This document shows, piece after piece, positions 20,365-41,093 of a DNA stretch of 64,000 nucleotides. The DNA is from a virus. A program made the position numbers and the translations under genes. How positions within the stretch are numbered: position 1 is the first letter of the stretch; each line of letters begins with the position of its first letter. The notes under the pieces are model-generated. The model was not told where the DNA came from. It saw only the letters and a list, made by a program, of their open reading frames with translations, and made no database searches. The stretch is taken from the IMG/VR virus record IMGVR_UViG_3300034018_000240, one strand, 5' to 3'.

Positions 20365-21918
20365 ATGGCAATTCAAACAATTCCAGGTTTAACTGGATTT
20401 ACTTATGCTCGTGTCGCTTCTATGGATAAGCGTGCAGTAGGTAAGTTAACTGATGCAAACCATTTAGAGAGCTTTCACTCTACAGAGCCTGCAGACTATG
20501 ATAAGAAGATTATCAGTTTGTACACTCAGAGTTCTCTTTATAGTAATGACTTCTTAGACATGATCAACAAGTCTACTCCTTACTATATTGATAACAACAG
20601 TGATGCTTGGAAATGGCAAGTACAAGTTCCTTACAAATTCCCAAAAATCATTGATGTTCCTACAAGCACATTAGAATTAAACAAACCTGGTATTGATGGT
20701 CAAGAATTCCAATTGATTATTGATACTAATGAGTTCTCTAAGAATGCAATTATTTCTGTAGGTACTCGTCAGTATGGTCCTCGTTTCTACGTAGTAAAAG
20801 ATCCTGTTCCTTGGAACGTAGGTTTCTTATACACTTTCACTTTGGTGAGTGACAATCCTACAGTAGATTTCGTAAGTGCTACATTCTTACAAGTGGGTAT
20901 CGAACTAGAATTAGTTGATGCTGCAATTGGTGAATTCGATCAAGACTTATTAGGTCTTCCTCGTTTAGGTGAGCAAATCACAATGTTTGAATCTTTAGGT
21001 TCTGCATATGGTTATGAGCACAAAATCACTGAGTGGGCTGATGATAAGATGATGAGAGATACAAAAGGTAATCCATTGGATATCTTAGTATACGCTCCTC
21101 AAAGACGTAACCAATTACCTTTAACTCGTAATGATGTTAAGTGGGAACCATTTATTGAGTTCTGGATGCGTAAGTCTATGTTAGAATTAAAAGTTAAGCG
21201 TATGATCTGGGCTCGTCCTGGAACTGTGAAGACTAATGGTTCTAAGCAAGAATTAAAGCGTACTTCTGCTGGTGTATATCACAGAATGCGTAACAATGGT
21301 AACTTAGTACAGTACAACAGAGGTGAGTTCACTGCGAACTTAATTCGTTCTGTATTTGGTGACTTATTCTACAGACGTGTGGATGTTAAAGACAGACGTG
21401 TTAAAATGTACACTAATGAAGCTGGCTTTGACGTATTCCAACAAGCTTTAAAGACAGATGCTTTGAATTCTGGCTTAACTTTCATGGCTGATTCTGGTAA
21501 CAGATACATGCAAGGAGAAGGACAACACATCACTTACAACTTTGCATTCGATGCAATGGTAACTCGTGAGACTGGTCGTGTTGAATTAATCCACTTGAAA
21601 GAGTTAGACCTTCCTCAAACAAATTTAGAATTTGGACAGAACAAGAAGTCAACTCCAGTATTTATGGTGTTTGATGTATCTCCAATGTCTGATGGTTCTA
21701 TGATCAATAATATTCGTGAAGTACGTATGAAGGGTGCACCTTCTATGACTTGGGGTTATATCGATGGTACTCGTCACCACTTAGGCTTTGCTAAGTCTCA
21801 AGGTATGAGTTCTGCGAACAAGTTCCCTGGATATGAGATTTGGATGAAGGATCGTTGTGATGTATTCATTGAAGATTTATCTAGAACAGTATTGATTGAA
21901 GAAATTCCTCAATTCTAA
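20365..21918 (+). CDS. putative major capsid protein (517 aa)
   Basis: Size and position (after scaffold, before a stem-loop cluster) fit crAss-like HK97-fold MCPs. No direct motif evidence. Confidence 0.5.
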   Translation: MAIQTIPGLTGFTYARVASMDKRAVGKLTDANHLESFHSTEPADYDKKIISLYTQSSLYSNDFLDMINKSTPYYIDNNSDAWKWQVQVPYKFPKIIDVPTSTLELNKPGIDGQEFQLIIDTNEFSKNAIISVGTRQYGPRFYVVKDPVPWNVGFLYTFTLVSDNPTVDFVSATFLQVGIELELVDAAIGEFDQDLLGLPRLGEQITMFESLGSAYGYEHKITEWADDKMMRDTKGNPLDILVYAPQRRNQLPLTRNDVKWEPFIEFWMRKSMLELKVKRMIWARPGTVKTNGSKQELKRTSAGVYHRMRNNGNLVQYNRGEFTANLIRSVFGDLFYRRVDVKDRRVKMYTNEAGFDVFQQALKTDALNSGLTFMADSGNRYMQGEGQHITYNFAFDAMVTRETGRVELIHLKELDLPQTNLEFGQNKKSTPVFMVFDVSPMSDGSMINNIREVRMKGAPSMTWGYIDGTRHHLGFAKSQGMSSANKFPGYEIWMKDRCDVFIEDLSRTVLIEEIPQF

Positions 21919-25785: not shown

Positions 25786-26020
25786 TATCCCAGCAACTCT
25801 TACACAAATTGATGCAAGGTTGACATATTGGGCAAATATTGAATATAACAATATCTCCTTTTCTACCAATACTTACATCCCTGGGGATGTAATAGGAGAT
25901 TTACTAAATTACAAACGTATATTAGAATATAGATCTTGTAATCCAGATTATGCTATGGTGTGTGGTCTTCCCACTACCTCTCAAGTTATAAGCAGGGTTA
26001 AAATTCTAATTAATAAATAA
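25745..26020 (+). CDS. hypothetical protein (91 aa)
   Basis: ORF-track ORF. Overlaps the small Cys-rich ORF by 41 nt, so one of the two may be spurious. Confidence 0.3.
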   Translation: MLTPRLTDCVINGSIPATLTQIDARLTYWANIEYNNISFSTNTYIPGDVIGDLLNYKRILEYRSCNPDYAMVCGLPTTSQVISRVKILINK

Positions 26021-26028
26021 ATTATAAT

Positions 26029-27186
26029 ATGTCTTGCGAAAGTTGCTACAATGGTTGTGTTGATATAGTATCTGATAAGTGTGTCAGATATACAGGAGTT
26101 ACGTATGCCTCAGTGGGCATTGATGCTGGTGATTCTTTATACCAAGTAGAGATTGCTTTGATAGAAAAAGTCATTTCTTTCTTGAATGGATCTGGTATAA
26201 ACATTAGTATAAACCCTACTTTTTTATGTAACTACATGCAGACATTTTTACCTGCAGGTAGTACTTTTACACTTCCTACAATAATTTCAGGAATTGTAAG
26301 AGCTATTTGTGATATTAACACTCGTGTTGTTAGTATTAATAATACACTAACTATATTAAATGCTGATTATACAATTGGCTGTCTTACAGGAGTTACAGCT
26401 TCTTCTGACACTCATGATATTGTTCAGGCTACTATAAATAAACTTTGTGCAGTTTCAACTGATCTTACTGCTCTTACTCTTAATGTAAATACAAACTATG
26501 TTAAGTTAGCAGATCTTGATGCTTTGATTGCTGCATATATTGCAGGTACATCAGGTGGTGGTTCTACCCAACAGTATTTAAAAATGGTTCCATTTGTAGC
26601 CTATGAATATTATGGACCATTAACAAACTTTGATGGATCAGGTATTGGCATCCCAGCAAATGGTTTCTTCAAAGTATATTTATGTAATGGTCTAAATGGC
26701 ACCCCTGATAGAAGAGGACGTGCTGCTGTAGGAGCCATTCAAAATGTACCAGGTGCTCCATTAGATGCTGCAGTAAATCCTGCTAATGCTGGTAATCCAA
26801 ACTATGCTTTGTATAACACAGCAGGAGCAAACACTGTAACTTTGATTACATCACAAATTCCTGTACATAGTCATAATGCTACTGTAGTGGCATCTGGATC
26901 AGTGCCAAACCACACTCACATAATAATGGGAGGATCAGGTCCTGGTAATAGTCCTGCTCCAAATGCATTACAAGTTATGGCAAATGAAAAAGGAGATGGT
27001 GGTAATGCAAGTTATAAATTTTCAATTGCTAGTTCTCAAGTACATAACTCTGGTATAAGTAGTGCAAGTGGAGCTGGTCCTGTAGCACTTAGTGTGGCTG
27101 TTTCAAACAGCGATACAGGTAGTGGAGGAGCTCATCCTAACATACAACCTGTAATAGCTGCATATTATATTATGTATATTCCTTAA
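26029..27186 (+). CDS. tail fibre protein with phage tail-collar domain
   Basis: FKVYLCNGLNGTPDRRGRAAVG...ANTVTLITSQIPVHSHNA matches the collar-domain pattern (LPDLRGR...vtLt..qmPaHtH). N-terminus MSCESCYNGC is paralogous to that of the next gene. Confidence 0.65.
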   Translation: MSCESCYNGCVDIVSDKCVRYTGVTYASVGIDAGDSLYQVEIALIEKVISFLNGSGINISINPTFLCNYMQTFLPAGSTFTLPTIISGIVRAICDINTRVVSINNTLTILNADYTIGCLTGVTASSDTHDIVQATINKLCAVSTDLTALTLNVNTNYVKLADLDALIAAYIAGTSGGGSTQQYLKMVPFVAYEYYGPLTNFDGSGIGIPANGFFKVYLCNGLNGTPDRRGRAAVGAIQNVPGAPLDAAVNPANAGNPNYALYNTAGANTVTLITSQIPVHSHNATVVASGSVPNHTHIIMGGSGPGNSPAPNALQVMANEKGDGGNASYKFSIASSQVHNSGISSASGAGPVALSVAVSNSDTGSGGAHPNIQPVIAAYYIMYIP

Positions 27187-27207
27187 TCTATTTAAACTAA
27201 CTATAAA

Positions 27208-29106
27208 ATGTCTTGTTCTTCTTGCTATCCTAATCCTAATCCTTGTTACACTGCATATTATCAACCTGGTCAAAACTGTGGTTGTTGTGGTGGTGTAGTG
27301 GGTGATTGTGGATGTGTTGGTACTGCTGGCACTGCTGGCACTGGTGGCTGGGGCTGCTGGTGTGGTGCTACAGGCTGTGCAGATGCTCCTTATAATAGTA
27401 ATAATACTGTCTATGTTGGACCTAATCTTCCTAACTCAGGTGTTAACACTTGTGACACTTTAACCACTGCATTAGAAAAAATTGACTATGTAGTAACAGG
27501 TGGTGGAGGTGGTGGAAAAAATGGAACATCAGGAACTAGTGGAACTCCTAGTACAAGTGGTTCTTCTGGAACCTCTGGTTCTTCTGGCTCTAGTGGTGTA
27601 ACTGGTGCTCAAGGTGCTGCTGGTGTAAATGGTACAGCAGGTTCTTCTGGTACATCAGCTTTGTCTGGTTCTTCTGGATCTTCTGGAAGTTCAGGAACTG
27701 CTGGTAAAAATGGTTCTAGTGGTGTTGATGGTAGTTCTGGAATCAGTGGTAGTAGTGGTACAAGTGGAAATTCAGGATCAAGTGGTAATAGTGGTACAAG
27801 TGGTACTGATGGCTCTAGTGGAACAGCAGGAACAGCAGGAACAGCAGGAGCTGACGGAGCTAATGGAAGCAGTGGCACAAGTGGTCAAAATGCAACCAGT
27901 GGTACAGCAGGACTATCAGGTGATAAATATGCTACAACATCAGTTAGCTCATTTACACTAGGAAGTGGAGGTACAATTACTGTTGGTACAGGACTTTCTT
28001 ATACCATAGCACAATCTGTATTAATTTCATTTAATGGATCAAACTATCAAACTTCTCCAGTTACATCTTATAACTCTGGAACAGGTGTTTTAGTTTTAGG
28101 TACACCAAGTGCTACTGTAGGTTCAGGAACTTATAGTTCTTGGACAGTTAACTTAGCAGGAGCTGCAGGTGGTAATGGTTCTAGTGGTACTTCTGGTTCT
28201 TCTGGAACAAATGGTACAGCTGGTACTAGTGGTACGTCTGGTACAGCTGGTACTTCTGGTACTAATGGAACAACTGGCACTTCTGGAACAACAGGTACAA
28301 GTGGAACAAATGGAACTTCTGGTTCTAGTGGTACTAGTGGTACCAATGGAACAACTGGTACAAATGGATCATCAGGGTCTAGTGGATCTTCAGGTTCATC
28401 TGGCTCTTCTGGATCATCAGGTAGCTCTGGATCTTCTGGGGTTAGTGGTACTAGTGGATCTTCTGGTGTATCTAATAGTATTTCTGGTGCTACTAATCAA
28501 GTTCTTAAATATAGTAGTGCTACTTCTGCTGTAGGATGTTCTATATATGATGATGATAATTATACATCAATAGGTGGTCCTAATCCAGGATCAAGACTTA
28601 ATGTATATCTAGGTAATGGTCAACCAGCAGGAAACTATGTTGCAGATTTTGCAGGCATAGAACCATACGTTACAGTTAGAGCATTAGGTGGTAGTAATAC
28701 TGCTACATTACAATTACTTCCTACATCAGGTTATACAGCATTTATTGGTAACTATAATGGTGGAGGTGTGATAATTAGAGCAATGAATGCTGATGTGGTT
28801 ACAATTGATTCATCTGGTGTTACAGCTCCAGCATTTTTTGAAACTTCTGATATTAGGTATAAGGATGTATTAGAATGGAACCCAGAAATAAATGTGCTTG
28901 GAATAGATGTAATTAAATTTAAGCGTACTGATATTGTAACTAATACAATTAACTATGGTTATTCAGCTCAACAAGTACAAGAAATTATTCCTGATGTTGT
29001 TAATGAGATAGATGAAAAGTTAAGTGTAAACTACATAGCTGTTCATACATTAAAGATAGCAGCATTAGAAAAACGTATTGCAGAACTTGAAGCTAAATTA
29101 AAATAA
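27208..29106 (+). CDS. collagen-like tail fibre with C-terminal S74 intramolecular-chaperone autopeptidase domain
   Basis: Cys-rich N-terminus. Two long (G-X-Y)n tracts (about 27520-27930 and 28140-28490). C-terminus SDIRYKDVLEWNPE...GYSAQQVQEIIPDVV...LKIAALEKRIAELEAKLK matches the endosialidase-chaperone pattern (SDxRxK...GxiAQEvqevlPelV...coiled coil). Confidence 0.75.
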   Translation: MSCSSCYPNPNPCYTAYYQPGQNCGCCGGVVGDCGCVGTAGTAGTGGWGCWCGATGCADAPYNSNNTVYVGPNLPNSGVNTCDTLTTALEKIDYVVTGGGGGGKNGTSGTSGTPSTSGSSGTSGSSGSSGVTGAQGAAGVNGTAGSSGTSALSGSSGSSGSSGTAGKNGSSGVDGSSGISGSSGTSGNSGSSGNSGTSGTDGSSGTAGTAGTAGADGANGSSGTSGQNATSGTAGLSGDKYATTSVSSFTLGSGGTITVGTGLSYTIAQSVLISFNGSNYQTSPVTSYNSGTGVLVLGTPSATVGSGTYSSWTVNLAGAAGGNGSSGTSGSSGTNGTAGTSGTSGTAGTSGTNGTTGTSGTTGTSGTNGTSGSSGTSGTNGTTGTNGSSGSSGSSGSSGSSGSSGSSGSSGVSGTSGSSGVSNSISGATNQVLKYSSATSAVGCSIYDDDNYTSIGGPNPGSRLNVYLGNGQPAGNYVADFAGIEPYVTVRALGGSNTATLQLLPTSGYTAFIGNYNGGGVIIRAMNADVVTIDSSGVTAPAFFETSDIRYKDVLEWNPEINVLGIDVIKFKRTDIVTNTINYGYSAQQVQEIIPDVVNEIDEKLSVNYIAVHTLKIAALEKRIAELEAKLK

Positions 29107-29108
29107 TA

Positions 29109-29789
29109 ATGAGTTGGGCATCCTTAACAAACAATCAGTGTATTTCTTGCAATAATTTACAAGATGGTGTAAACAATAATGTGTTTACATTAAAAAATGC
29201 TATCCCTGTTAGTAACAAACAAGTCACTAGAAATGAAGCAGAATTTTATGTAAACATTCAAAATATAACAAATAGGTCTGCTAATGAACTTGTAATTAAA
29301 AGTGATGTAATATCTTCTGGTAGTACAACAACTACATCAACTACTCAAGTTCCAACTCCTTGTGGAAATCCAACTTCTTATTCAGGAGGAGTTACATATC
29401 CAACACCATTCACAATTACAGTTGGTAGTGGTACAGGAAATACTACTCTGACATTTGATGCACAAAATGTTCCTGATAGATTTATAGTTCAATGGAATGG
29501 TAATTTTGTAATTGATACAGGATATAGAGGTAATTCTAATTATAACATTGGAGGAAGTCTTAGAAGTAACTTTAATTCTTCTTTAAGTGGTAAAGTAGAT
29601 CCTATAACAGGATTAACTTATCCAAACACTACTCAATGGCCAGGAGATGGTTATCCACTAGTAGTAAGTCCTGGTAATGGAACTTCTGTATTTTCTAAAA
29701 ATGCTTCCTCACCAACTACAGCAAATGTTTTTGTTTATGCTCCTCTTCCAGGAACTGCGTGGTCATTTACATTAGGTTGCCCAATATAA
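29109..29789 (+). CDS. tail fibre / receptor-binding protein, MSWAS family paralog 1 (226 aa)
   Basis: About 70-aa N-terminal module, nearly identical to that of the next gene (MSWASLTNNQCISCNNLQD...FTLKNAIPV...AEFYVNI), then a poly-Thr linker and a unique C-terminal domain. Confidence 0.55.
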   Translation: MSWASLTNNQCISCNNLQDGVNNNVFTLKNAIPVSNKQVTRNEAEFYVNIQNITNRSANELVIKSDVISSGSTTTTSTTQVPTPCGNPTSYSGGVTYPTPFTITVGSGTGNTTLTFDAQNVPDRFIVQWNGNFVIDTGYRGNSNYNIGGSLRSNFNSSLSGKVDPITGLTYPNTTQWPGDGYPLVVSPGNGTSVFSKNASSPTTANVFVYAPLPGTAWSFTLGCPI

Positions 29790-29821
29790 TATTTTAAAAC
29801 CAAATTAATATTAAATAAGTA

Positions 29822-31336
29822 ATGAGTTGGGCATCAATAGCAAATAATCAATGTGTTTCATTAAATAATTTACAGGATGCTGTGAACAATGGAGTATTTA
29901 CATTAAAGAATATAATTCCTGTTCCTAACACTAAACAAGTAACTTCAGGTGAAGCAGAATTTTTTGTAAATATAATTCCTACAGGTAAGTCTGTTAATGA
30001 ACTTGTTGTTAAGTCTAATTTAGTTTCACCTCCAACTACAACTACTACATCAAGTACAAGTACAACAAGTACAACCACAACATTTATTTCAGATCCTTGT
30101 AATTGTGTTGAAGTAAATATTACATCTGCTGGTGGTGAAGTAGCAACATTTAATTGTTTTGGAGTAAATGAAAACTATGTTTATGCAACAGCTGGTACTA
30201 GATATATTTGTGCAGCTGTTATTGGTGGCTTATTACAAGCTAACATCGTATCAGGTACAGGAACGTTAACACCTATTGGTAATTGTAAAACTGGACCTTG
30301 TGGATCAACAACAACAACAACAACAACAACTATATTTAATCCAACTAACAACCTTAATTTTATTCAGACTATTGTAAGTAGAGATGATGTTACTAGCTCA
30401 AATGATGGAAAATATGTAGCTACAATATGCGTTACAAATAATAAATTATATATTTCTAATGACTATGGACTTACTTATACAACAGTTACTGTTGCTGGGA
30501 CAAATACACTCTATAGAGTTGCTGTAAGTGGAACAGGTGAGTATATGTATTGTCTTTCACAAGCTCAAGGACAACCAGGTGTTATTTCAAGATCTACAGA
30601 TTATGGTGTTAATTGGAATACTACAGGTACTGCAACAGGAGCATATTCTTCAATTACTACAAATAGAACAGGACAATATGTAATTGTTGGAGCAATAAAT
30701 TTAGGTGAAGCAGAATCAGGGTTGGGTCAAATTTGGAGATCTTCAGATTATGGAGTATCTTTTGTAAGAGTAGATTTTTCTTTTGGTGGTCTTTATCCTC
30801 AAGCACCCTATGCTGTTACAGTAGATAGTTCAGGTAATCGTCAATATGCTGCTACCATTAATCTTAGTATGGCAGCATTTGATGGAACTGTAGGAAGAAC
30901 AACAACTGCTTTAGGTAATTTTACACCCAAAGCTCAAGATGGTAATCAAACATATTATGGAGTGAGTACCTCTGCTGATGGATCAAAAGTGGTTGTTGCT
31001 AATCAAGGTGGATTTTACGGATATAGTCCTGGAAATGTTCAGTTGAAAAGAAGTATAGATTATGGTGACACGTATGCAAATTTTGGTGGAGTTTCTACTC
31101 AATGGCTTGGTGTAACTATAGATGGAAGTGGTACAAATATAATAGCTGTTCCAGGTACTTCAGGAGCAAGCACTTTATATAAATCAGTTTCATTTGGTAC
31201 ACTTTCTTCAGTAGCAAGTTCTAAACTTTGGACTAGTGTATCAATTTCTTATAATGCAACTGTAGCAATTGCTGCAGAAACAACTGGACTTTGGAGATCT
31301 ACAAATGGTGGATCTACTTGGACAAAATTATCTTAA
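29822..31336 (+). CDS. tail fibre / receptor-binding protein, MSWAS family paralog 2, with C-terminal BNR/Asp-box beta-propeller
   Basis: Shared N-terminal module and a poly-Thr linker. Repeated S-x-D-x-G-x-(T/N)-W-like motifs: SNDGKYVAT, SRSTDYGVNWNT, RSSDYGVSFV, SIDYGDTYAN, STNGGSTWTKL. Confidence 0.65.
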   Translation: MSWASIANNQCVSLNNLQDAVNNGVFTLKNIIPVPNTKQVTSGEAEFFVNIIPTGKSVNELVVKSNLVSPPTTTTTSSTSTTSTTTTFISDPCNCVEVNITSAGGEVATFNCFGVNENYVYATAGTRYICAAVIGGLLQANIVSGTGTLTPIGNCKTGPCGSTTTTTTTTIFNPTNNLNFIQTIVSRDDVTSSNDGKYVATICVTNNKLYISNDYGLTYTTVTVAGTNTLYRVAVSGTGEYMYCLSQAQGQPGVISRSTDYGVNWNTTGTATGAYSSITTNRTGQYVIVGAINLGEAESGLGQIWRSSDYGVSFVRVDFSFGGLYPQAPYAVTVDSSGNRQYAATINLSMAAFDGTVGRTTTALGNFTPKAQDGNQTYYGVSTSADGSKVVVANQGGFYGYSPGNVQLKRSIDYGDTYANFGGVSTQWLGVTIDGSGTNIIAVPGTSGASTLYKSVSFGTLSSVASSKLWTSVSISYNATVAIAAETTGLWRSTNGGSTWTKLS

Positions 31337-31358
31337 TTAAACCAAACAAATCAATAAT

Positions 31359-31988
31359 ATGACAGTCTTAGTAACATTAACATTAGCAGGGACAGACGTA
31401 GGTCCCTTTAACCTTTATTCAAATGTAGATGGATATACCACAGCAATAGCAAGTGGTGTATCTAGAGCTGCATTAGTAGCAGGATACAATCTTTTAAATG
31501 TGCCTGATAATGCTTCTGTTATCAGAGTACAATCTACAGGCACTTGTACAAATTATCTTGATATACTTTTAAGTGGTGCAACAACCACTACAACTAGTAG
31601 CACTTCTACTTCTACAACAACCTCTACAACCACAGCATTTGTTGAATGTATAACTGGTGATAGAAATGCACTCGCTACATGTTCTGGAGGTGAATCTGCT
31701 CCATTCACAGTGACTGCAGGAAATACAGCTCTTATCACTCCTGGTGGATATTACTACTCTGGAACTGGTACAAGAACATATGCATGTTACATTATGGATG
31801 CTGCAAATACCACAGTTTTATATACGTTCACTTATACTCAGACAAGCATGAGTCCAGGAACTTGGGCATCAACATTACCTTCTAACATCTTATCTGCAGG
31901 TAGCTATCGCTTAAGAACAGATACAGTGAACTGTTTCACTAGCTCTGGTACATTTAGTTTAGTTGCAACTTGCAACACACCTGATTAA
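31359..31988 (+). CDS. tail fibre-associated protein, TGPFDL family paralog 1 (209 aa)
   Basis: N-terminal about 70-aa module (LTLAGTDVGPFNLYSNVDGY...LVAGYNLLNVPDNASVIRVQSTGTCTNYLD) shared with the 41115 and 41560 genes. Poly-Thr/Ser linker. Followed by a strong terminator. Confidence 0.55.
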   Translation: MTVLVTLTLAGTDVGPFNLYSNVDGYTTAIASGVSRAALVAGYNLLNVPDNASVIRVQSTGTCTNYLDILLSGATTTTTSSTSTSTTTSTTTAFVECITGDRNALATCSGGESAPFTVTAGNTALITPGGYYYSGTGTRTYACYIMDAANTTVLYTFTYTQTSMSPGTWASTLPSNILSAGSYRLRTDTVNCFTSSGTFSLVATCNTPD

Positions 31989-32019
31989 AAACCCCTGTTT
32001 GTTGGTTTACAGATGGTCT

Positions 32020-32049
32020 CCCCTAGGGTTTCTACCCTGGGGGTTTTTT
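32020..32049 (+). terminator. rho-independent terminator
   Basis: CCCCTAGGGT-TTCT-ACCCTGGGGG (10-bp stem including one G-U) followed by TTTTTT. Confidence 0.7.
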
Positions 32050-32155
32050 GTTTAAACTCTAACTAAAAAAGTTATTCTATATAATTAAATTAGTTAACAA
32101 AATTTTGAAAATGTCAAAAATAATTCCTACCTTTACAGTAATTTTAACTAAACTA

Positions 32156-32163
32156 AACTACAT
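32156..32163 (+). promoter_or_regulatory. conserved AACTACAT element abutting the start codon
   Basis: ctaaactaAACTACATATGc, 110 nt downstream of the terminator. Confidence 0.35.
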
Positions 32164-33414
32164 ATGCCTGAAAATCAATCCTTGCTGCAACAGCTAGAAG
32201 AGATTCTACACTGGAAAAAAAGTAAAAAGTTCTATGCTGATAAGCTTGGAATTACAGAGTTTGAGGTGGATGAGCTATTAAAAGAATTAAGAAATCAAGA
32301 GAAGAGTGAAGAAGATGCTGAGATAGGGAACTATATTGCTGATCTAGAAAACAGGGTTATTAAGTTTACAGAAGATCTAGCTAAGGGTACAGGAGAGGTT
32401 GTAGCCAACTTTAGCGAAGAGGTTAAGAGTTTAGACGAACTCATTGAGAAATGTAAGATAGATACAGAGAAGTGGGAGATAACCAAATATGTTCAAAACT
32501 TCTGGGGAAATGGAAACAATCCTCATTGGCAAGTCAAAGCATGGTTAGGGAAGAAGTCTACAGAACAAGTTTTTCAAGATGTGTTTGTAGACTTTTTAGC
32601 TTCATATAAGCCTGTGTCTCAAGAAGTTATGAGTCCTAAGGTTGACTTTAACAAACCAAATGGTATGTTAGTTATCAACAAACAAGACTCTCACTTAAAC
32701 AAATGGGACATAGATGGTAATAATAATGTAGCAGATAGACTAGCTAACATTATGTACAAGGTGGAACTGATAGCTAATCAAGCTCAGTTATCCAACAACT
32801 TGCAGAACATAACTTACATAATAGGATCTGATGAGTTTAACAGTGAGTATACAAATGCCACTACAAAAGGAACTCCTCAACAGAACACGCATACATATCA
32901 TACATCTTTTGAATACATCTGTGGACATGAGGTGTTAATGATTACAATGTTATTACAATATGCTCAGAATGTAAATGTAATCTATGTGGCAGGTAATCAT
33001 GATGAGTTTGTAGGTTGGCATTTAGTTAACTGGTTACAAACCTACTTCAGAAATACAGAGAGATTAGCATTTGATTTATCTCCTAAGTATAGAAAGTATG
33101 TAAGCTATGGTGATTCAGCATTGATGTTTAACCATGGAGATGCTATCAAACCAGCTAAGCTTGCAGCTTTATTCCCAATAGAGTTTAGAGAACATTGGTC
33201 TAGTCATAGCAAGTTTTACATTTTTACAGGAGACAAACACCATGAGGTGAGTCATGATTTCAATGGTATAAAGTTTTATCAAATTCCAGCATTTTCAAAT
33301 GCTAAAAGTCTTTGGGACGACAAGATGGGTCACACAATGTCCAAGGCAGAAGTAACAGGATTTTTAATAGATGACTGTGATGGGATGACAAATATATTCA
33401 AACAGTATTTATAA
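32164..33414 (+). CDS. calcineurin-like metallophosphoesterase family protein (416 aa)
   Basis: Ordered motifs QDSH (DxH), IGSDE (GDxxD-like), YVAGNHDEF (GNHD/E), NHGD, TGDKHHEVSHD (GHxH-like). Preceded by the AAACTACATATG motif and an AT-rich promoter-like region. Confidence 0.55.
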   Translation: MPENQSLLQQLEEILHWKKSKKFYADKLGITEFEVDELLKELRNQEKSEEDAEIGNYIADLENRVIKFTEDLAKGTGEVVANFSEEVKSLDELIEKCKIDTEKWEITKYVQNFWGNGNNPHWQVKAWLGKKSTEQVFQDVFVDFLASYKPVSQEVMSPKVDFNKPNGMLVINKQDSHLNKWDIDGNNNVADRLANIMYKVELIANQAQLSNNLQNITYIIGSDEFNSEYTNATTKGTPQQNTHTYHTSFEYICGHEVLMITMLLQYAQNVNVIYVAGNHDEFVGWHLVNWLQTYFRNTERLAFDLSPKYRKYVSYGDSALMFNHGDAIKPAKLAALFPIEFREHWSSHSKFYIFTGDKHHEVSHDFNGIKFYQIPAFSNAKSLWDDKMGHTMSKAEVTGFLIDDCDGMTNIFKQYL

Positions 33415-34151
33415 TGGCAACATTAAGACAAATGGTTTCAGATGTACGTTCAGTACATAAATTGCTCACTACAGATAATCTAATTACTGATAGAGTGGTT
33501 GCGTCTGAAATCAAGAACAACACATTTTTACTAATCAAACGTGAGACTAATCTCAGAAAGCTTTGGGCTACTGATACTGTATTTCAAACACTTCCTTGTT
33601 TGGAAATGCTAGAGGTGCCTATTTCTGATTGCTGTGAATATGTGGACCCTTGTCAAGTTGCAAGAAGCAAATACAAACTTCCTCGCATCAGTGAGGGAAA
33701 CTATCAATACTTAATCCAAGGTGTTTATTCTATAAACGCTATGGGAGGTAAAGGAAAAAGATTCAAAGAGATTACAATCAATAGATACTTAAATCTATTA
33801 AAACTTCCTATCATAAAAGCTGAACAATACTATTGGATAGCTAATGGTGGGTATCTATATGTTAACAATCCTAACTTAAAATCAGTTAGAATATCTGCAT
33901 TCTTTGAAGAAGATATTCCAAACAGTATTTTATATCCTGATGATTGTGCTTGTGGAAACATTCCTTCTGTAACAAATGAAGAGTATTGTATAAATCCATT
34001 AGACAAAGAGTTTGGATGCCCAGGCTACTTAATAACACAAGTGTTACAACTTACTTCTCAAAAACTATTATCGACATACTTTAGCATTAAAACAGACCAA
34101 ACATTTGATGGCATTGATGGACAAGCTCCCAATGCAAAACCAACAAGCTAA
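33414..34151 (+). CDS. structural protein of unknown function (245 aa)
   Basis: TAATG-coupled to the upstream gene. Confidence 0.5.
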   Translation: MATLRQMVSDVRSVHKLLTTDNLITDRVVASEIKNNTFLLIKRETNLRKLWATDTVFQTLPCLEMLEVPISDCCEYVDPCQVARSKYKLPRISEGNYQYLIQGVYSINAMGGKGKRFKEITINRYLNLLKLPIIKAEQYYWIANGGYLYVNNPNLKSVRISAFFEEDIPNSILYPDDCACGNIPSVTNEEYCINPLDKEFGCPGYLITQVLQLTSQKLLSTYFSIKTDQTFDGIDGQAPNAKPTS

Positions 34152-34627
34152 TGCGTACTAAGATAGACTGGAGAAGCTCTAGTAAAGAAAACTACAGTAA
34201 CTTTTGTAAGAAACATCCCACCATAAAAATTACATTTGATGAGTGGCGAAACATTATATATTTATATAATGACAATTTTAAAAACTACATTCTAGAAACA
34301 GGAGAGAAAGCAAGACTTCCTTTTGGCTTTGGTGAGTTCTCTATCAATAAAAAGAAGAGAAAGAAAACAAAGACAGTTGATGGAAAAGAAGTGGTTAACC
34401 TACCAGTAGACTGGCAGAAGACAAAACAAAAGGGAAAAATCATCTACAACTTCAACTTTCATACAGAGGGATTCTTTTTTGGTTGGATGTGGTTTAAAGA
34501 GTCCACTAGGATTCGTAATATAAATCTTTGGTATTTCAAACCTTCTCGTACCACTTCTAGATTGCTGTCACATTACATAAAAACAGATGATAAATACCAA
34601 CACATTTATTGTGAATGGAAAAAATAA
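34151..34627 (+). CDS. structural protein of unknown function (158 aa)
   Basis: Coupled ORF. Confidence 0.45.
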   Translation: MRTKIDWRSSSKENYSNFCKKHPTIKITFDEWRNIIYLYNDNFKNYILETGEKARLPFGFGEFSINKKKRKKTKTVDGKEVVNLPVDWQKTKQKGKIIYNFNFHTEGFFFGWMWFKESTRIRNINLWYFKPSRTTSRLLSHYIKTDDKYQHIYCEWKK

Positions 34628-34633
34628 AAGAAC

Positions 34634-35605
34634 ATGGCATACTATTACAGATACAATTTTGTCTCACCTGAACCAATTTATTCAGTTGTTAAGGAAGAGT
34701 TAAAATCCTACTTTGACACAGGAGCAGTGGATGATTTGCTTTTCCCTACTTACTTAGACAAATGTCTACAGAAGTTAGGTAGGTCAAGTTATGTCATTGC
34801 TGAACAGACGCTAGATATTTCTGGTTATGAGGCTAGACTTCCTGATAACTTCTTTGCTGTTAGAGAGGCTTGGATGTGTACAGAGATACCATCTAACTAC
34901 CCATATCAAACAGCTAACTCGTTCTATTCTCAAGCTGCTTCTCAAACAACAATACAAGTCTCTCCTATTATTAGTGGTGGAGTTCCTTGTGTAGAACCTA
35001 ACTGTACAACAGGATGTCCTACGTGTATGCCTGATATCATCCAAGCAGTATATAAAACCAATCAACAGATTGCTAGATCAATAAAAAGAGAATACTTATT
35101 AAAACCAGGTAATATATCTTGTCAAAGTAAGTGTGATGTAAGTTATACAGATGCTTGGGAATTCTATACACCTGCTCCTCCTATACATGAGTTCACTCCA
35201 GGATCAGCAGGATATGATAGCTTTGACATTAGAGATAATAAGTTTGTCACTAACTTTGGTTGTGGTATAGTTCATATGATATTCTATGCTACAGACTATG
35301 ATGCTATTGGTAATCAGTTAATTCCTGATAACTATCGTATTAGAGAGTTTGTAGAAGCGTTTATTAAATACAAGGTGTTTGAGACATTGGCTAATCAAAT
35401 CAATGATGAAACTTTTAATCAAATACAACAGAAGCTAGCATATTACAAACAGCTACATGATGAAGCATTCATTATGGCTTACACTGAAATTAAGAAGCAA
35501 GACGCATGGACTAAACAAAGAAGAGTAAGAAATGACTTACAACGCTTTGGACAATATGAATTACCAAATAGAAGCTCAAGATATGGCAGAGGATGGAATA
35601 GATAA
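34634..35605 (+). CDS. structural protein of unknown function (323 aa)
   Basis: Long ORF, Cys-rich central part. Confidence 0.5.
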   Translation: MAYYYRYNFVSPEPIYSVVKEELKSYFDTGAVDDLLFPTYLDKCLQKLGRSSYVIAEQTLDISGYEARLPDNFFAVREAWMCTEIPSNYPYQTANSFYSQAASQTTIQVSPIISGGVPCVEPNCTTGCPTCMPDIIQAVYKTNQQIARSIKREYLLKPGNISCQSKCDVSYTDAWEFYTPAPPIHEFTPGSAGYDSFDIRDNKFVTNFGCGIVHMIFYATDYDAIGNQLIPDNYRIREFVEAFIKYKVFETLANQINDETFNQIQQKLAYYKQLHDEAFIMAYTEIKKQDAWTKQRRVRNDLQRFGQYELPNRSSRYGRGWNR

Positions 35606-38600
35606 TCAAGGAACATCTAACGTAAGACAAGAATTTAATCTTGGCAGAGTTGGATTAGACATGGACTCTTCTGTAAATCAAATACAGAAGGGTAAGCTTT
35701 CTTATGCTCTAAACGCAGCATTAGAAAACTTTGACGCTAATTCTGTAAGCTATCAGAATGAGCCAAGTAATGAAGCTTGCTTAGAGTTTCCTGAAGGCTT
35801 TCAGCTTATTGGAACTCATTTCATACAAGAGAAAAACAAACACATATTCTTCTTAGCGAATCCTCAAACAGGAGGAAGTGAGATAGGATATATGGATAAC
35901 AATGATTGTGTATATCGCACACTTTGTACTCCTATTCCTGATACAGACTTAACAGTTTGTGCTAACTCAGAATGTTTAAACTTTGATATAAACTATCCAA
36001 TACACAAGGCTGTACATAAGATTACAAACTGTACCACTGAGGTTTATTGGACTGATGGATTAAATCCAAGAAGATATATTAACATTGAGCAAGTTCCATA
36101 TGTTTTTTCATATGAAGGAGGTAATACTTGTGATCCAACTATTCTAGTAGTAGATGGACAAGGAGTTCTTGATTGTAATAAGTTAGATGTACAACCTAAC
36201 TTTCAAATTCCTAATATAGAAGTTGCTGAAATTGTTGTAGGAGGAGATTTGAGAGCTGGTACTTATCAATTTGCTATTCAATATGGTAATGCTTCAGGAG
36301 ATGCTTATACATCCTACTTCTCTATAACTAATCCTACATCTATTGCTAATACAGAAATAACAACTCCTGATTTTCAATATTCTGTAGGTGAATCTATTGT
36401 ATTAAATATTACTAACTTAGATGTTACAGGATACTTCCAATACTTTAACTTAGCTGTTATAAAGACCATTAATAATGGTACCACTGTAGAATTAGTGGGA
36501 ACATATAACATTGAAGAAAAGTCTACAAGTATAACTTATACAGGACAGAACACAACTCAGATTCCTTTGAGTCTTGCAGATGTTCTTGAAAAGTTTCCTT
36601 ATTATGAGATTGCTCAAGATGTAACAAACGTACAAGATGTTATTGTTTGGGACAACTTAACTTCTATTGATAGAATCAACTATCAAAGCGTTGCTAATCA
36701 AGTACAACTTCAATGGGAGACATATAAACTGCCAGCTGGTAACACCTATGCTGATGGTTTTTATACTTCCAACTTAAGAGGATATTTAAGAGATGAGGTT
36801 TATGCATTTGAAATTGTATTCTTATTAACCAATGGTAAGCAAACAGATGGTTTTCATATTCCTGGTAGATCACCAATTTCTAATGATTTAACTCCTATTT
36901 ATGAAACTGGTCCTAATGCAACTCCTGACTTCATAGGTACTGCTACTAATGTTGAACCTGTTACACTTTATAAATATAGTCCTAATTGGAAAATATATAA
37001 TACAGCCAGTGTATCTACAACGTATCCTGTTCCTACAGACAATACTAGGAAGATAGGAGAGGCATACCCTTATCAATCTGGAGACTTTGCATATTGGGAG
37101 TCTACTGAGGAGTATCCATGTAACGTAGATGTATGGGGAGACTTAGCTGGTAAACCAATTAGACACCATAAATTTCCTGATGTTCTTGTAAGTCCTTACT
37201 TTGAGAGTCCAAGCATTGTATATAATGGAGGTCAGATAGAACCTGTAATGCAAGTTGCCAATGCTATCTATCCAATAGGTGTGAAGATAGATGTACAACA
37301 AGTGGCATTTGCTATTCAAAGCTCTAGTTTAACAAATGAAGAGAAGGCATCTATTGCTGGATTTAAAATAGTAAGAGGTAATAGAAGTACAAACAAATCT
37401 ATTATTGCTAAAGGTATTCTTAGAAATGTAGGTAAATACACTAGAGAAGATCCTGCTGATCCTAATGCTACATACTACTACTATCCTAACTATCCATACA
37501 ATGACTTAAGTGAAGATCCATTCTTACTTGAGAGAAACAATGCTTACAACTCTCAATGTGATACGTTCTCTGTATCAGTGACAACTCCTGGTATCTTACA
37601 ATACACAAACTGTTTTACAGGAGAAGTAGATACACAAGCTTTTACTAGCAGTACCACTGAAATATGTTCTATCACACTTCCTGTTGTAAATAGTGGTTCT
37701 GCAACATTTACAAATACTACAACTACTACTTATACAATTACAAATAATTCAGCTGTTAGTTCTGTTACATTTAATTATACAGATCCAGTTACAGGAGCAT
37801 TACAAAGTATAACAGTAGGTAGTGTTGTAGGTGGTAACAACGTTAAAACATTTAACTCTACCACTTTCCCTGTAAGAACATCAGGACTAAGTAATTATAA
37901 AATAGTAGCTAGCAACACAAGTGAAAACTTAAATTGTTATCCTAATAAATTAGATGGATTTAATAATCCTGAGTCTGCTTACAGACAAGTATTTAATTCT
38001 CCAGAGACTTCTTTTGGACAACCTACACTAGGTAATGTTCTTAAGTTAGAGAGTGTATTATTTGGTGGAGGAAGAGCTCATTTTGTTGAAGTGCAGAAAC
38101 ATGCTATGTATAAGCTTATCACTGAACAAACACAAGTTGATGCTTTAACCTCTAGTAAGAGAATAGCTGATCTTGGGGGATTTAGTCCTACAGCATTCTT
38201 TACAGCATATCAAACTTACTTACAGATTTATATCAATGGTATTAGTAGACAAAACTTTGCATATTCATTTAACTCTATATCTAGTTATGATTATAGTGCA
38301 GATATTTCTAATAATCAAGGAATTAAACAAAGACAACTTGATCTAGCTCAATACGTATTTCCAGGTGTACAGAACGTAGGTGATAATTATGATCTTAATA
38401 ACTGGAACAGAGAGTCTTCAGTTTATGTTAAAACTATTGATGTTAGAAATGGAATACCTGTATCACCTTTGCCATATCCTAATGACACCCCTTCTCTTGT
38501 TGTAGCAGGTGTAAGTCAAATTAGTGACACTTCAAGATTTACAATTTCAGAAGCAGAAAACTGTGCTAGTCCTGAAGCTCAGAGAGATATCAAAGTAGTA

Positions 38601-41093
38601 TCTTACTATGGTTCTATAAAGGCTATTAATAATGCTCAATGGGGACAGATATATTCATATCAAACTATTGACACAGGATTCCAAAGAATATTCAGTGCAA
38701 TATCTGCTAATGATCCTGAAGTAATATTTGGTGGTGATACATATATTGGTAAGTTTGGATTTAAAACAAAACTTCCATTCTTTATTGATAATAGAGTGAA
38801 TGCTCCTGATGATTCTGATATATATTATGATGAGATAGGTAATGTAGCTTACCCACAATATTGGTATTCAGCAAGATCTATCTTGTCTGATTTTACTGTA
38901 GGCTCTACTGTAATGAAGAATATAATCTCTACCAAAGCACATTATCTTGATTGTCCTAATGATGATATTGCTGACAGTGGTACAACAACTTCTACAACTA
39001 CACCTGCTCCAGGAACAGTAATAGCTGGTTCTTTGAATTATGTGTATGATGGTAAGATGTACTTGTTTGCTTATGGTATTCCTTACTATTATGTAGAGAG
39101 TTCTATTAATGTAGACTTACGTCAGGCATTCAATAACTTAGAAGGTGACTTCTATCCACATGTAAGTTCAGGTATCCCTGATACTTGGTTCCAAGAAAGT
39201 AGAGTTCCTATTGCTCTTGATAATACATATTATTACAATACAACCTTCTCTAAGCAGAATGTAGAGAACTTCTTCTCTCACTTGCCTGCAGATTGGATAC
39301 AGCAATTATGTTATAAAAACTTTCCATTCAGAGCAATATACTCTGATAGACAAGAAAGTTATTCTGACAATAGAATAAATAGCTGGTTGATATATCGTCC
39401 AGTGAGCTTCTTTGATTTCCCTCAAAACTATGGTAATCTTATATCTTTAGATGGTATTCAGAACAGAGCTACACTAGCTAGATTTGAGAACAAGACATTG
39501 TTATATGGTAACATGTTAACATTGAATACAAGTAATCCTCAAGCAGCTTATTTAGGTAATCCTTCATTATTCAGCAGTGTTGAACCACCTCCTATAGATT
39601 ACGCTGAAACAGATCTTGGATATGTTGGTTGTCAAAATAAGATGTTGCTTAAGATACCTCAAGGGCAGATAACTATTGATGCTAAGAGATGTCAAGTATT
39701 TTTAATTCAAGGAACACAAGCAACTGATATTTCAGGATTTGGTTCTGGTCTTAATAGATTCTTTACAAATCATTTAGCATTTGAAATACTAAGATACTTC
39801 CCAACAGTTAACACAGATAATCATTTCAAGAATATTGGTATTCATGGTGTGTATGATAGTGTATTTGAAAGAGTAATAATTACTAAGTTAGACTATGTTC
39901 CACAACCAGGTAAAGAGGTATTTTATGATGAGGTGGTTAAACAGTTTTATGTTGACCAACCAGTAGCTGGTGATCTTGTAGTTAAGAAATATATCGAGGT
40001 GACAGATCTTGAATACTTCTGTAACAAATCATGGACTGTTTCATTTAACTTCAATACAAAGAGTTGGGTGAGTTTTCATACATATCTTCCTAACTTCTAT
40101 ATAGGAGAAAACAGCTTCTTCTATTCTGGATTAAATGAAGGTTGTGATGTCACAGCAGTGGCAGTTGTACCAATACCTTCTCCAACCACAACTACAACAA
40201 CAACAAGAATTATATACTGTAACCTAACTGGTACAGCTGTAGTGGTAGGATATCCTTGTCTTTTAGGAGGAACAGCTTCACAACAAACCACTACCACTAC
40301 AACAACATCTACATCTACTTCTACTAGTACCACTACTACTACCACAACTGCTGTGCCTTTTGACTGTATATTAATTCCAGGATCTTTTACAACAGAACCT
40401 GATTGTAGATTAACAGCAGGAGAATTTATACGTGTATCTGTTACTACAACAAGTACAACAACTCCTACTCCTACAACTAGCACTACCACTACACCACAAC
40501 CATCTCTTTATAGATATAGTTCAGCAGGTCCTGATGATGCTTGTGGTACTGCTTTAACAATGACAAATGTAATATTGACTGATCCACCATTCTGTTCTGC
40601 AACTGCAATTCAATGTGATGAGTTTGTACTATCACCAGCTGGTGTACCAGTATGGGTTCGCACTGGTAATAGCTATAGAGCTGCAACAATCAATGATCCT
40701 AATACATCTGGAATTGCTACATTCGATGTAGGAACATGTATTGTATGTACAACTACAACTAGTACTTCTTCTACTACTACTACCACTACAACTGCAGCAC
40801 CTGTTGCAAGAACTGTAACTAACCTTGGTGCAAGTGCTTCTGATATATTAGGAGAGATTTATATAGATTCCTCAGTTACTCTTAGTGGTAATGTAAATGT
40901 AGATACTATAATAGAAGTAGTTGTGTCCACTAGTACATATGGTGATATCACTGTATATGTTACAATACTCAATGGTAACAATGCAGGAGTTGGTTCAACT
41001 TCTGTTGGAATGGGAAGTCTTCCATCAGTATCAGGTCAATGTATTGCATCTTCTGATAATGTATATGTAACTTTCATTGGGTATGAATGTTAA
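35532..41093 (+). CDS. giant tail/fibre-associated protein (about 1830-1853 aa) with multiple poly-Thr/Ser linkers
   Basis: Longest uninterrupted frame. The start is ambiguous (ATG at 35532, 35556 or 35583; the last overlaps the upstream gene by only 23 nt). Four poly-T/S linker tracts in the last 300 residues separate Cys-containing modules. Confidence 0.6.
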   Translation: MTYNALDNMNYQIEAQDMAEDGIDNQGTSNVRQEFNLGRVGLDMDSSVNQIQKGKLSYALNAALENFDANSVSYQNEPSNEACLEFPEGFQLIGTHFIQEKNKHIFFLANPQTGGSEIGYMDNNDCVYRTLCTPIPDTDLTVCANSECLNFDINYPIHKAVHKITNCTTEVYWTDGLNPRRYINIEQVPYVFSYEGGNTCDPTILVVDGQGVLDCNKLDVQPNFQIPNIEVAEIVVGGDLRAGTYQFAIQYGNASGDAYTSYFSITNPTSIANTEITTPDFQYSVGESIVLNITNLDVTGYFQYFNLAVIKTINNGTTVELVGTYNIEEKSTSITYTGQNTTQIPLSLADVLEKFPYYEIAQDVTNVQDVIVWDNLTSIDRINYQSVANQVQLQWETYKLPAGNTYADGFYTSNLRGYLRDEVYAFEIVFLLTNGKQTDGFHIPGRSPISNDLTPIYETGPNATPDFIGTATNVEPVTLYKYSPNWKIYNTASVSTTYPVPTDNTRKIGEAYPYQSGDFAYWESTEEYPCNVDVWGDLAGKPIRHHKFPDVLVSPYFESPSIVYNGGQIEPVMQVANAIYPIGVKIDVQQVAFAIQSSSLTNEEKASIAGFKIVRGNRSTNKSIIAKGILRNVGKYTREDPADPNATYYYYPNYPYNDLSEDPFLLERNNAYNSQCDTFSVSVTTPGILQYTNCFTGEVDTQAFTSSTTEICSITLPVVNSGSATFTNTTTTTYTITNNSAVSSVTFNYTDPVTGALQSITVGSVVGGNNVKTFNSTTFPVRTSGLSNYKIVASNTSENLNCYPNKLDGFNNPESAYRQVFNSPETSFGQPTLGNVLKLESVLFGGGRAHFVEVQKHAMYKLITEQTQVDALTSSKRIADLGGFSPTAFFTAYQTYLQIYINGISRQNFAYSFNSISSYDYSADISNNQGIKQRQLDLAQYVFPGVQNVGDNYDLNNWNRESSVYVKTIDVRNGIPVSPLPYPNDTPSLVVAGVSQISDTSRFTISEAENCASPEAQRDIKVVSYYGSIKAINNAQWGQIYSYQTIDTGFQRIFSAISANDPEVIFGGDTYIGKFGFKTKLPFFIDNRVNAPDDSDIYYDEIGNVAYPQYWYSARSILSDFTVGSTVMKNIISTKAHYLDCPNDDIADSGTTTSTTTPAPGTVIAGSLNYVYDGKMYLFAYGIPYYYVESSINVDLRQAFNNLEGDFYPHVSSGIPDTWFQESRVPIALDNTYYYNTTFSKQNVENFFSHLPADWIQQLCYKNFPFRAIYSDRQESYSDNRINSWLIYRPVSFFDFPQNYGNLISLDGIQNRATLARFENKTLLYGNMLTLNTSNPQAAYLGNPSLFSSVEPPPIDYAETDLGYVGCQNKMLLKIPQGQITIDAKRCQVFLIQGTQATDISGFGSGLNRFFTNHLAFEILRYFPTVNTDNHFKNIGIHGVYDSVFERVIITKLDYVPQPGKEVFYDEVVKQFYVDQPVAGDLVVKKYIEVTDLEYFCNKSWTVSFNFNTKSWVSFHTYLPNFYIGENSFFYSGLNEGCDVTAVAVVPIPSPTTTTTTTRIIYCNLTGTAVVVGYPCLLGGTASQQTTTTTTTSTSTSTSTTTTTTTAVPFDCILIPGSFTTEPDCRLTAGEFIRVSVTTTSTTTPTPTTSTTTTPQPSLYRYSSAGPDDACGTALTMTNVILTDPPFCSATAIQCDEFVLSPAGVPVWVRTGNSYRAATINDPNTSGIATFDVGTCIVCTTTTSTSSTTTTTTTAAPVARTVTNLGASASDILGEIYIDSSVTLSGNVNVDTIIEVVVSTSTYGDITVYVTILNGNNAGVGSTSVGMGSLPSVSGQCIASSDNVYVTFIGYEC

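Follow-up and report, generated by a model that had tools for sequence, protein, structure and literature searches.

Tandem genes with a common N-terminal domain and exchangeable C-terminal modules behind a predicted self-cleaving fibre gene of a crAss-like phage

Two neighbouring phage genes whose products begin with the same domain and end in entirely different ones raise the question of what the common domain does and why both genes are present. We analysed such a pair, here named orfA and orfB, in a stretch of 64,000 nucleotides (the window) from the IMG/VR virus record IMGVR_UViG_3300034018_000240. A preliminary description had regarded them as receptor-binding genes in which one docking module carries alternative heads, implying either that two fibres share one attachment site or that the two are used alternatively.

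The source of the window is an uncultivated crAss-like phage whose hosts are Bacteroidota. The window corresponds to the structural module of such a phage, in which crAss-type capsid, ring and muzzle proteins are encoded. Among cultured phages the sole match of the major capsid protein is to Leptolyngbya phage Lbo-JY46 (26% identity), and a megablast search of positions 26000-34200 against them returned no match. Both genes reside in a tail-fibre cluster, with a collagen-like fibre on one side and the crAss ring proteins on the other (Table 1), and the gene that begins this cluster is kept in relatives. The start of orfA is located 2 nt past the stop codon of the collagen-like fibre gene. No terminator-like hairpin was found between orfA and orfB, the two are co-oriented, and they appear to be co-transcribed.

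Table 1. Features of the tail-fibre cluster (positions in the window)
Feature	Position (nt)	Strand	Description
Tail-fibre-like protein, 385 aa	26029..27186	+	Opens the fibre cluster; matches phrog_8469 'tail fiber protein', E 1.6e-13
Collagen-like tail fibre, 632 aa	27208..29106	+	Pfam Collagen, E 1.2e-28; C-terminal Peptidase_S74-type intramolecular chaperone
S74-type chaperone of the fibre	28849-29103		Residues ~548-632
orfA, 226 aa	29109..29789	+	N1, residues 1-69 (nt 29109-29315); Thr/Ser linker, 70-83; HEADA, 84-226 (nt 29358-29786)
orfB, 504 aa	29822..31336	+	N1, residues 1-69 (nt 29822-30028); poly-Thr linker, 70-87; M; second linker; propeller
orfB module M, Cys-rich beta, 70-residue	30083-30301	+	Residues 88-160; followed by poly-Thr linker, ~161-179
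orfB 7-bladed BNR/Asp-box propeller	30359-31333	+	Residues 180-504
orfC, 209 aa	31359..31988	+	N2 module, residues 1-73; Thr/Ser linker; third head; last gene of the fibre operon
Terminator-like hairpin	32020..32053	+	10 bp stem, 7 G-C pairs, then T-run; closes the fibre operon

Both open reading frames carry the proposed common N-terminus of about 70 residues, which we call N1. BLASTP aligns residues 1-69 with 48 of 70 positions identical (69%, E 6e-26) and finds no significant similarity beyond residue 69. The similarity withstands alignment statistics, the Smith-Waterman score being 233 against 30 +/- 5.7 in 2000 shuffles (z = 35.6), and at 69% identity the description of the two N-termini as near-identical was an overstatement. 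Divergence sets in at Thr/Ser-rich linkers, as had been said of a Thr hinge. At the nucleotide level the N1 copies are 75% identical over 69 aligned codons with a dN/dS of ~0.40, which points to purifying selection on both; each retains the family-conserved residues and matches the N1 profile with high significance (E 2e-38 and 7e-36). In the AlphaFold2 model of full-length orfB (mean pLDDT 80.7), N1 is seen as a compact globular alpha/beta domain (pLDDT 90-97) that leads into a linker without order, values for the linkers being below 50. Owing to the second linker, orfB consists of three folded modules and not two. N1, M and the N2 module of orfC are unrelated to one another.

N1 matched nothing in Pfam, PHROGs or the PDB, and tblastn against cultured phages was also negative. 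A word-indexed profile search yielded just 6 fragments, and it was an exhaustive profile search of 1.84 billion representative proteins that revealed a family of 430 clusters at E<=1e-3. N1 always occupies residues 1 to ~73 of proteins that are 59 to 855 aa long, and the regions behind it fall into at least 52 clusters. Mean pairwise identity across the family is 60% for N1 vs 23% for the regions that follow. N1 is an undescribed family, while the modular phage adhesin is an ordinary, known kind of protein. One candidate for a diverged N1, the N-terminus (MKVNNYLVTGANL...) of the post-S74 protein of locus L087, was rejected as jackhmmer gave no link and hhalign a probability of 0.8%.

One of the heads had been described as a BNR propeller, and several lines of evidence agree with this. 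The C-terminal part of orfB contains repeats of the Asp-box S-x-D-x-G-x-T-W (among them SNDYGLTY, STDYGVNW, SSDYGVSF, SIDYGDTY and STNGGSTW) and is modelled with about 29 strands; Pfam BNR_6 is matched below threshold (E 1.5e-4), homologues bear PF15899, PF15902, PF02012 and PF13088, and the best Foldseek matches in the PDB are GH74 and sortilin propellers, with phage propellers also matched. HEADA, the head of orfA, is characterised by the motif VPDRFIVxWNGxxVIDTGYRG. A 16-sequence alignment of HEADA gave nothing credible against PDB sequences and Pfam, and weak sub-threshold matches to ThreeFoil and Coleoptericin were rejected since they were not reproduced with this alignment.

Exchange of these heads is visible in related phages. 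HEADA is a mobile domain which, besides N1, is preceded by at least four other kinds of N-terminus, including N2 and a lambda-gpI-like one. The orfB propeller is found behind N2 instead of N1 in P0008 (94% identity) and in P0012-P0029 (59-72%), M is present in more than 40 other proteins, and the head encoded at this locus differs in close relatives. N2 itself, which in relatives bears an orfB-type propeller or HEADA, recurs in the window in the ORFs at 41115-41549 (46% identical to that of orfC, E 3e-19) and 41560-42426. The occurrence of the same heads behind other N-terminal modules supports the cassette exchange that had been proposed.

What N1 attaches to is suggested by its neighbourhood. 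The same-strand ORF just upstream of the N1 gene is S74-tailed in 61 of 76 cases, and in most of the exceptions a single small ORF or inserted gene separates the two. With two exceptions among the 76, one of which is orfB, the gap between the upstream ORF and the N1 gene lies within -26 to +5 nt. Reciprocal searching with a single S74 tail as query, followed by a check of the downstream gene, located N1 directly downstream in 21/21 loci at >=70% identity, 7/10 at 45-70% and 1/18 at <45%. Clustering revealed no gene family other than the S74 fibre tail that is common to more than 34 of 89 loci, and N1 stays ~60% identical in loci whose remaining genes lack similarity to the window; the phage type of distant N1 loci could not be told from Pfam scans of the genes around them. 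The pair of S74 fibre and N1 gene is also present in an isolate genome, that of Nubsella zeaxanthinifaciens TDMA-5, on contig NZ_QMHP01000012.1.

The fibre encoded directly upstream of orfA matches collagens among PDB sequences, and its C-terminal chaperone is matched by Pfam Peptidase_S74 below threshold (E 0.0087). A profile of the C-terminal tails of such fibres matches the chaperone region of phage S16 gp37 (6F45, E 1.8e-6), the T5-like L-shaped fibre 8HQZ (E 1e-3) and MYRF (7DC3). The predicted self-cleavage motif FFETS|DIRYK, of the form S-D-x-R-x-K, spans residues 543-552, with the cut after Ser547, and its Ser and Lys are ~90% conserved among partner fibres. Among the fibres upstream of N1 genes, conservation begins only ~15 residues ahead of this motif. 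In Mantel tests N1 co-varied modestly with the chaperone, with the 25 pre-cut residues and, most of all, with the fibre body, so that the outcome reflects shared ancestry and does not inform on the identity of the partner.

The tandem arrangement is rare. A single N1 gene is present in 118 of 122 N1-bearing loci, and two were found in only 3 of the 80 loci that have at least 1.5 kb on either side; tandem pairs are limited to the phage of the window and one relative. The arrangement of orfA and orfB is identical in 19 contigs. The N1 of orfA is 91% identical to that of one relative and the N1 of orfB 84% to that of another, indicating two acquired cassettes rather than a copy made in place. Alternative use of the two genes, one of the implications drawn earlier, finds no sign of regulation. 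The N1 copies form direct repeats at a distance of 713-716 nt, a search for the repeats of an invertible segment turned up just three inverted pairs, which are weak and short (18-21 nt), and Pfam and PHROG scans of the neighbouring ORFs revealed no invertase. With neither suitable inverted repeats nor an internal terminator, the model of an invertible or diversity-generating cassette or of a regulated switch finds no support.

We therefore consider it about an even chance (probability roughly 0.5) that N1 anchors monomeric adhesins at the tip of the processed fibre, in the manner of phage gp37 and gp38, and that both types of head are displayed. orfA and orfB would be modular adhesins with N1 as their attachment domain, and the variable C-terminal modules would serve as ligand-binding heads on flexible Thr/Ser linkers. 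The fibre encoded directly upstream would trimerise, its S74 chaperone would then cleave itself off, and N1 would most likely dock onto the distal end thus processed. As both N1 copies are conserved and apparently expressed, the two proteins should compete for one site, giving virions which show HEADA as well as M with the BNR propeller. Virion incorporation, docking partner, stoichiometry and ligand binding by the heads are what we infer here; of the docking module with receptor heads in the preliminary description, the architecture is borne out by comparative data, and docking by N1 and receptor binding by the heads are putative functions of its parts. The globular N1, the disordered linker, the heads of monomer type and the tie to the fibre gene suggest alternative tip adhesins rather than two independent fibres, so the earlier notion of two fibres at one site probably needs changing to that of alternative tip adhesins on one collagen-like fibre. 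More tentatively, and with doubt prevailing, N1 might be a universal plug-in domain that reads the new fibre C-terminus left by S74 self-cleavage, so that loading of the adhesin is gated by correct folding of the fibre. It would then be a widespread, unrecognised and non-homologous counterpart of the gp37-gp38 system in Bacteroidota phages; where a phage has two N1 genes, their products would compete for the tip, and the resulting mosaic virions would hedge its bet on host range.

It is also conceivable, and in our view rather unlikely, that N1 docks directly on the tail, at a hub or ring protein, or else on the capsid, and that orfA and orfB form two independent short appendages competing for one site, in line with the preliminary description. 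The crAss-type ring and muzzle proteins in the window and the docking of crAss001 fibres by short N-terminal segments in tail hubs and hexon pockets (PMC10172136) speak for this, and the co-variation tests lend no preference to the fibre tip. However, a domain docking there would be expected to track the hub or capsid proteins, yet N1 keeps its identity across dissimilar loci, and the overlap or near-abutment with the fibre stop codon would be left unexplained. [quoted passage not shown] We hold this to be improbable, because the fibre already comes with an intramolecular chaperone whose Ser/Lys motif is intact, no tail-fibre-assembly family was matched by orfA or orfB in Pfam and PHROGs, and what varies are large autonomous domains, among them propellers of 325 residues, which also occur behind unrelated N-modules that do not adjoin S74 fibres, as suits binding heads rather than chaperone surfaces specific to a fibre.

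Less probable still is that both proteins are soluble factors that bind or cleave glycans after being freed at lysis, with N1 acting in folding, oligomerisation or regulation. The best solved-structure matches of the propeller are indeed GH74 glycoside hydrolases; however, in GH74 enzymes two propellers form the cleft and orfB has one, and the genes lie inside a tail-fibre operon between fibre gene and ring proteins, with start/stop coupling to the fibre gene. By sequence the N-termini are unlike signal peptides, so that release would need lysis. That the pair is a decaying duplication with one non-functional copy, as the prevalence of single N1 genes might be taken to mean, seems scarcely credible: both reading frames are intact with strong N1 profile matches and a low dN/dS, the heads are unrelated and each is conserved elsewhere, and the different nearest relatives of the N1 copies and the recurrence of the arrangement argue against it too.

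The two-adhesin arrangement is in itself a modest finding. Many phages change their host range through conserved anchors with swappable heads, on which receptor-binding-protein engineering is also built. To these anchors N1 would contribute an unannotated, compact family from phages of Bacteroidota, a group in which little is understood of receptor recognition and crAss-like phages are difficult to bring into culture. The near-obligate pairing of N1 with S74 fibres offers a simple rule for spotting adhesin genes in metagenomic phage contigs, and the cultured Nubsella isolate with this pairing an experimental entry point.

Among known systems, the Tfa genes of Mu, P2 and lambda and the invertible S/U cassettes likewise lie after a fibre gene, and alternative C-termini behind a conserved N-terminus set the host range. 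They differ from the present locus, where no match to these families and no suitable inverted repeats were found and neither gene is truncated or inverted relative to the other. crAss001 shares the virion type, with its capsid, ring and muzzle proteins. Its docking segments comprise residues 1-26 of gp22 in the tail hub and residues 1-38 of gp21 and 1-58 of gp29 in hexon pockets, and its authors suggest that the head fibres gp21 and gp29 represent two binding specificities (PMC10172136). No crAss001 chain was matched when orfA and orfB were searched against PDB sequences, and N1, unlike these segments, occurs also in loci without detectable similarity to the window, almost always beside S74 fibres. 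[quoted passage not shown] An N-terminal docking element, interchangeable receptor-binding modules and adjacent genes are common to both systems. However, collagen and S74 are all that Pfam detects in the upstream fibre, with no T4gp10-like domain, and it finds nothing relevant in the first ORF of the cluster; further, RBP2 combines a short docking peptide with trimeric beta-helix depolymerases, whereas N1 is a folded domain and its heads are not of that kind.

The closest likeness in logic is to gp38, the long-tail-fibre tip adhesin of T2, T6 and S16 (Straboviridae), whose gene directly follows that of a distal fibre likewise ending in an intramolecular chaperone of this family; the S16 chaperone is mentioned in PMC10579305. 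In gp38 a short linker joins the conserved N-terminal attachment domain to a variable receptor-binding part, and in S16 the tip of the trimeric gp37 fibre bears it as a monomer via the attachment domain (PMC12032242). N1 differs in having no sequence or fold similarity to that domain. The receptor-binding part of gp38 is a polyglycine sandwich with hypervariable loops, whereas the sequences and model of HEADA, M and the propeller are without a glycine-rich motif array and whole domains are exchanged. The locus described here is further set apart by its long poly-Thr/Ser linkers, its two tandem adhesin genes, its Bacteroidota hosts and its crAss-like virion.

The window represents the structural module of a crAss-like phage that is uncultivated and has a G+C content of about 35%; the window's features are collected in the table. 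No close cultured phage was found by megablast, and among cultured phages the capsid protein matches only that of a cyanophage (26% identity). The same neighbourhood could be read in 19 contigs, and a 77-kb NCBI metagenome contig carries a locus 100% identical to the window. The 416-aa protein encoded after the fibre operon and before ring protein 2 matches the PHROG 'DNA repair exonuclease' phrog_704 (E 5e-45) and is 83% conserved in one relative; since a nuclease-like protein is oddly placed there, this product may have a structural role and a metallophosphatase-like fold.

Features of the window
Feature	Coordinates	Strand
DnaB-like helicase	976-2037	-
SET-domain protein (E 4e-13)	4041-4442	-
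P22-type portal	15808-18396	+
SPFH/Band 7 protein, directly 3' of portal gene	18396-18926	+
crAss major capsid protein	20365-21918	+
Fibre cluster	26029-31988	+
orfA	29109-29789	+
orfB	29822-31336	+
Module M of orfB	30083-30301	+
orfC (N2 gene, ends fibre operon)	31359-31988	+
Terminator-like hairpin	32020-32043	
416-aa protein	32164-33414	
crAss ring protein 2	33414-34151	+
crAss ring protein 1	34634-35605	+
Muzzle protein	35532-41093	+
N2 genes just 3' of muzzle gene	41115-41549; 41560-42426	
Large ORFs 3' of muzzle gene, one a single ORF of 4145 aa that ends the structural module	51161-63598 (4145-aa ORF)	+

The preliminary description had read orfA and orfB as tandem genes with a common N-terminal adaptor and different heads, and alignment statistics confirm this. 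The two proteins are 69% identical over residues 1-69 (E 6e-26, z 35.6 against shuffles), and no similarity was found in the alignment past residue ~70. This shared module, N1, shows 75% nucleotide identity between the genes with a dN/dS of about 0.4, and is followed in both by Thr/Ser-rich tracts that are disordered in AlphaFold2. orfA consists of N1 and a 143-residue head, HEADA, without match in Pfam or PDB sequences. orfB contains three folded parts, namely N1, a Cys-rich all-beta module M (residues 88-160) and, as had been described, a propeller (residues 180-504), which is 7-bladed, of the Asp-box type and closest among solved folds to GH74 xyloglucanases and sortilin. M is ~70 residues long with six conserved cysteines and poly-Thr linkers on both sides, and occurs twice within one protein in P0031 and P0032.

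An exhaustive profile search at E<=1e-3 places N1 in 430 clusters (counted at 50% identity), of which 271 reach E<=1e-10; in IMG/VR it is found at 134 loci. The proteins measure 59-855 aa and all begin with N1, a few after a short N-terminal extension. The C-terminal regions behind it are unrelated and form at least 52 clusters; a poly-Thr/Ser linker follows in only 67 of 293 proteins. The full-length model shows N1 as a small alpha/beta domain (strand 11-13, helix 14-22, strand 39-41, helix 42-48; pLDDT 90-97), and modelled by itself it keeps the same secondary structure at a pLDDT of only 67.6. Genome matches are almost all from Bacteroidota (Bacteroidia, Sediminibacterium and Chryseobacterium MAGs and the isolate Nubsella zeaxanthinifaciens) and therefore point to this host phylum.

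The main new point is the coupling of N1 genes to self-cleaving fibres. The C-terminal tail of the collagen-like window fibre is a Peptidase_S74 intramolecular chaperone, sub-threshold in Pfam, with the predicted cleavage motif FFETS|DIRYK; its profile matches the S16 gp37 chaperone region 6F45 (E 1.8e-6), a T5-like fibre and MYRF. The ORF ending just 5' of the N1 start has C-terminal ~90 residues like those of this fibre in 61 of 76 cases, even in loci with nothing else in common with the window, and only two of the 76, orfB among them, have a spacing outside the range -26 to +5 nt. Most exceptions to adjacency have one small ~110-aa ORF or an apparent inserted endonuclease-type gene in between. 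In the reciprocal search, with one S74 tail as the only query, N1 was found downstream in 21/21 loci at >=70% identity, 7/10 at 45-70% and 1/18 below 45%; tails at greater distance have no [FY][FY]E[ST]S motif and precede a different small ORF. Clustering revealed no gene family besides the S74 tail common to more than 34 of 89 loci. The Nubsella pair overlaps by 4 nt, and the sequence preceding its cleavage site differs. What appears undescribed, and is the new part, is the N1 family together with its coupling to S74 fibres; the principle of swappable heads is already well known.

Several further features accompany these junctions. In strain TDMA-5 of N. zeaxanthinifaciens, a cultured Sphingobacteriaceae isolate (NZ_QMHP01000012.1; L148 36-5149), a gene for a 1322-aa S74-tailed fibre and a 382-aa N1 gene lie in a probable prophage or tailocin, a possible experimental handle. 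A 277-aa gene between fibre and N1 (L014 4459-5292, L015 5057-5890) ends in an S74 tail copy (...IYQEIRELKAKLN) and looks like a mobile endonuclease-type insertion. Small ORFs of ~105-130 aa and at least two sequence types occupy this position in about a dozen loci (among them L021, L022, L026, L028, L031, L041 and L043), and similar ones lie directly 3' of more distant S74 fibres without an N1 gene (L124-L140); they may be further fibre-associated partners. In two loci, giant S74 fibres (2813-3086 aa) with N1 partners are followed after 2.4-5.6 kb by glycosyltransferase genes on the opposite strand (L017 12920-16635, L054 16168-19584, both minus), one of which has extra methyltransferase and GT9 domains; no such gene turned up when ORFs in the left arm of the window were scanned.

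The proposed exchange of cassettes is supported. The orfB propeller lies behind another N-terminal module, N2, in protein P0008 at 94% identity, and recurs at 59-72% identity in 416-421-aa proteins of 112-118-kb contigs; HEADA is found behind N1, N2, a lambda-gpI-like N-terminus and others, and M at 65-89% identity in over 40 further metagenomic proteins, where its position varies. C-terminal swapping among related phages was likewise borne out, as gene content varies between the fibre gene and that at 32164. The fibre is followed by one N1-propeller gene and an N2 gene in L003 and L008, by N1 with a different propeller, N1-HEADA and N2 in L083/L084 (a tandem pair in reverse order to the window), and by a protein with a non-homologous N-terminus, N2-propeller and N2 in L087, which shows that this place can also be taken by a different sort of N-terminus. 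N2 (~73 aa, MTVLVTLTLAGTDVGPFNL...) is present in three genes of the window, is 46% identical between orfC and the ORF at 41115 (E 3e-19), and bears the same heads as N1 in relatives; hhalign finds it unrelated to N1.

Tandem N1 pairs are rare (4/122 N1 loci; 3/80 when each flank is 1.5 kb or longer) and confined to the window phage and its L083/L084 relative. The N1 of orfA is 91% identical to that of the 226-aa gene of L083, while the N1 of orfB is 84% identical to that of L003 and only 51% to that of the first L083 gene. These identities indicate that the two copies come from different cassettes rather than from a recent in-place duplication, and a decaying duplicate is less consistent with the data. 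The roughly 25 nt before the orfB start (29790-29821) are similar to the fibre gene's final codons ahead of orfA (29080-29108; ...AAATTAA.AT...TAATG); the similarity may be an S74/N1 junction remnant brought along with the cassette or merely a shared AT-rich initiation region. orfA starts 2 nt past the fibre stop and orfB 32 nt past orfA, the sole strong terminator-like hairpin lies 3' of orfC, and no inverted repeats suggesting a switch were found; co-expression of both proteins with the fibre is therefore expected.

On the best-supported reading, N1 would be the domain by which exchangeable heads, probably binding glycans, are fastened to the distal end of the fibre after S74 processing, and a site common to both proteins would give virions with a mixture of two heads. 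Docking and receptor binding are plausible, unproven roles; the fibre is the suggested partner on the basis of synteny, because co-variation tests gave no information on the partner. The data are less consistent with direct attachment to the tail or capsid, of the kind seen in gp22, gp21 and gp29 of crAss001 (PMC10172136), with a chaperone-like part in fibre assembly or maturation, or with action outside the virion. Given the linkage of N1 genes to the upstream S74 fibre, the suggested two fibres at one site are better put as a single fibre with two alternative adhesins at its tip. By homology tests N1 does not belong to the gp38 family. The closest known logic is nevertheless that of T2, T6 and S16, where a monomeric gp38 adhesin, encoded directly downstream of gp37, binds the fibre tip via a conserved N-terminal attachment domain (PMC12032242), and where the chaperone on gp37 belongs to one family with that of the window fibre (S16 chaperone: PMC10579305).
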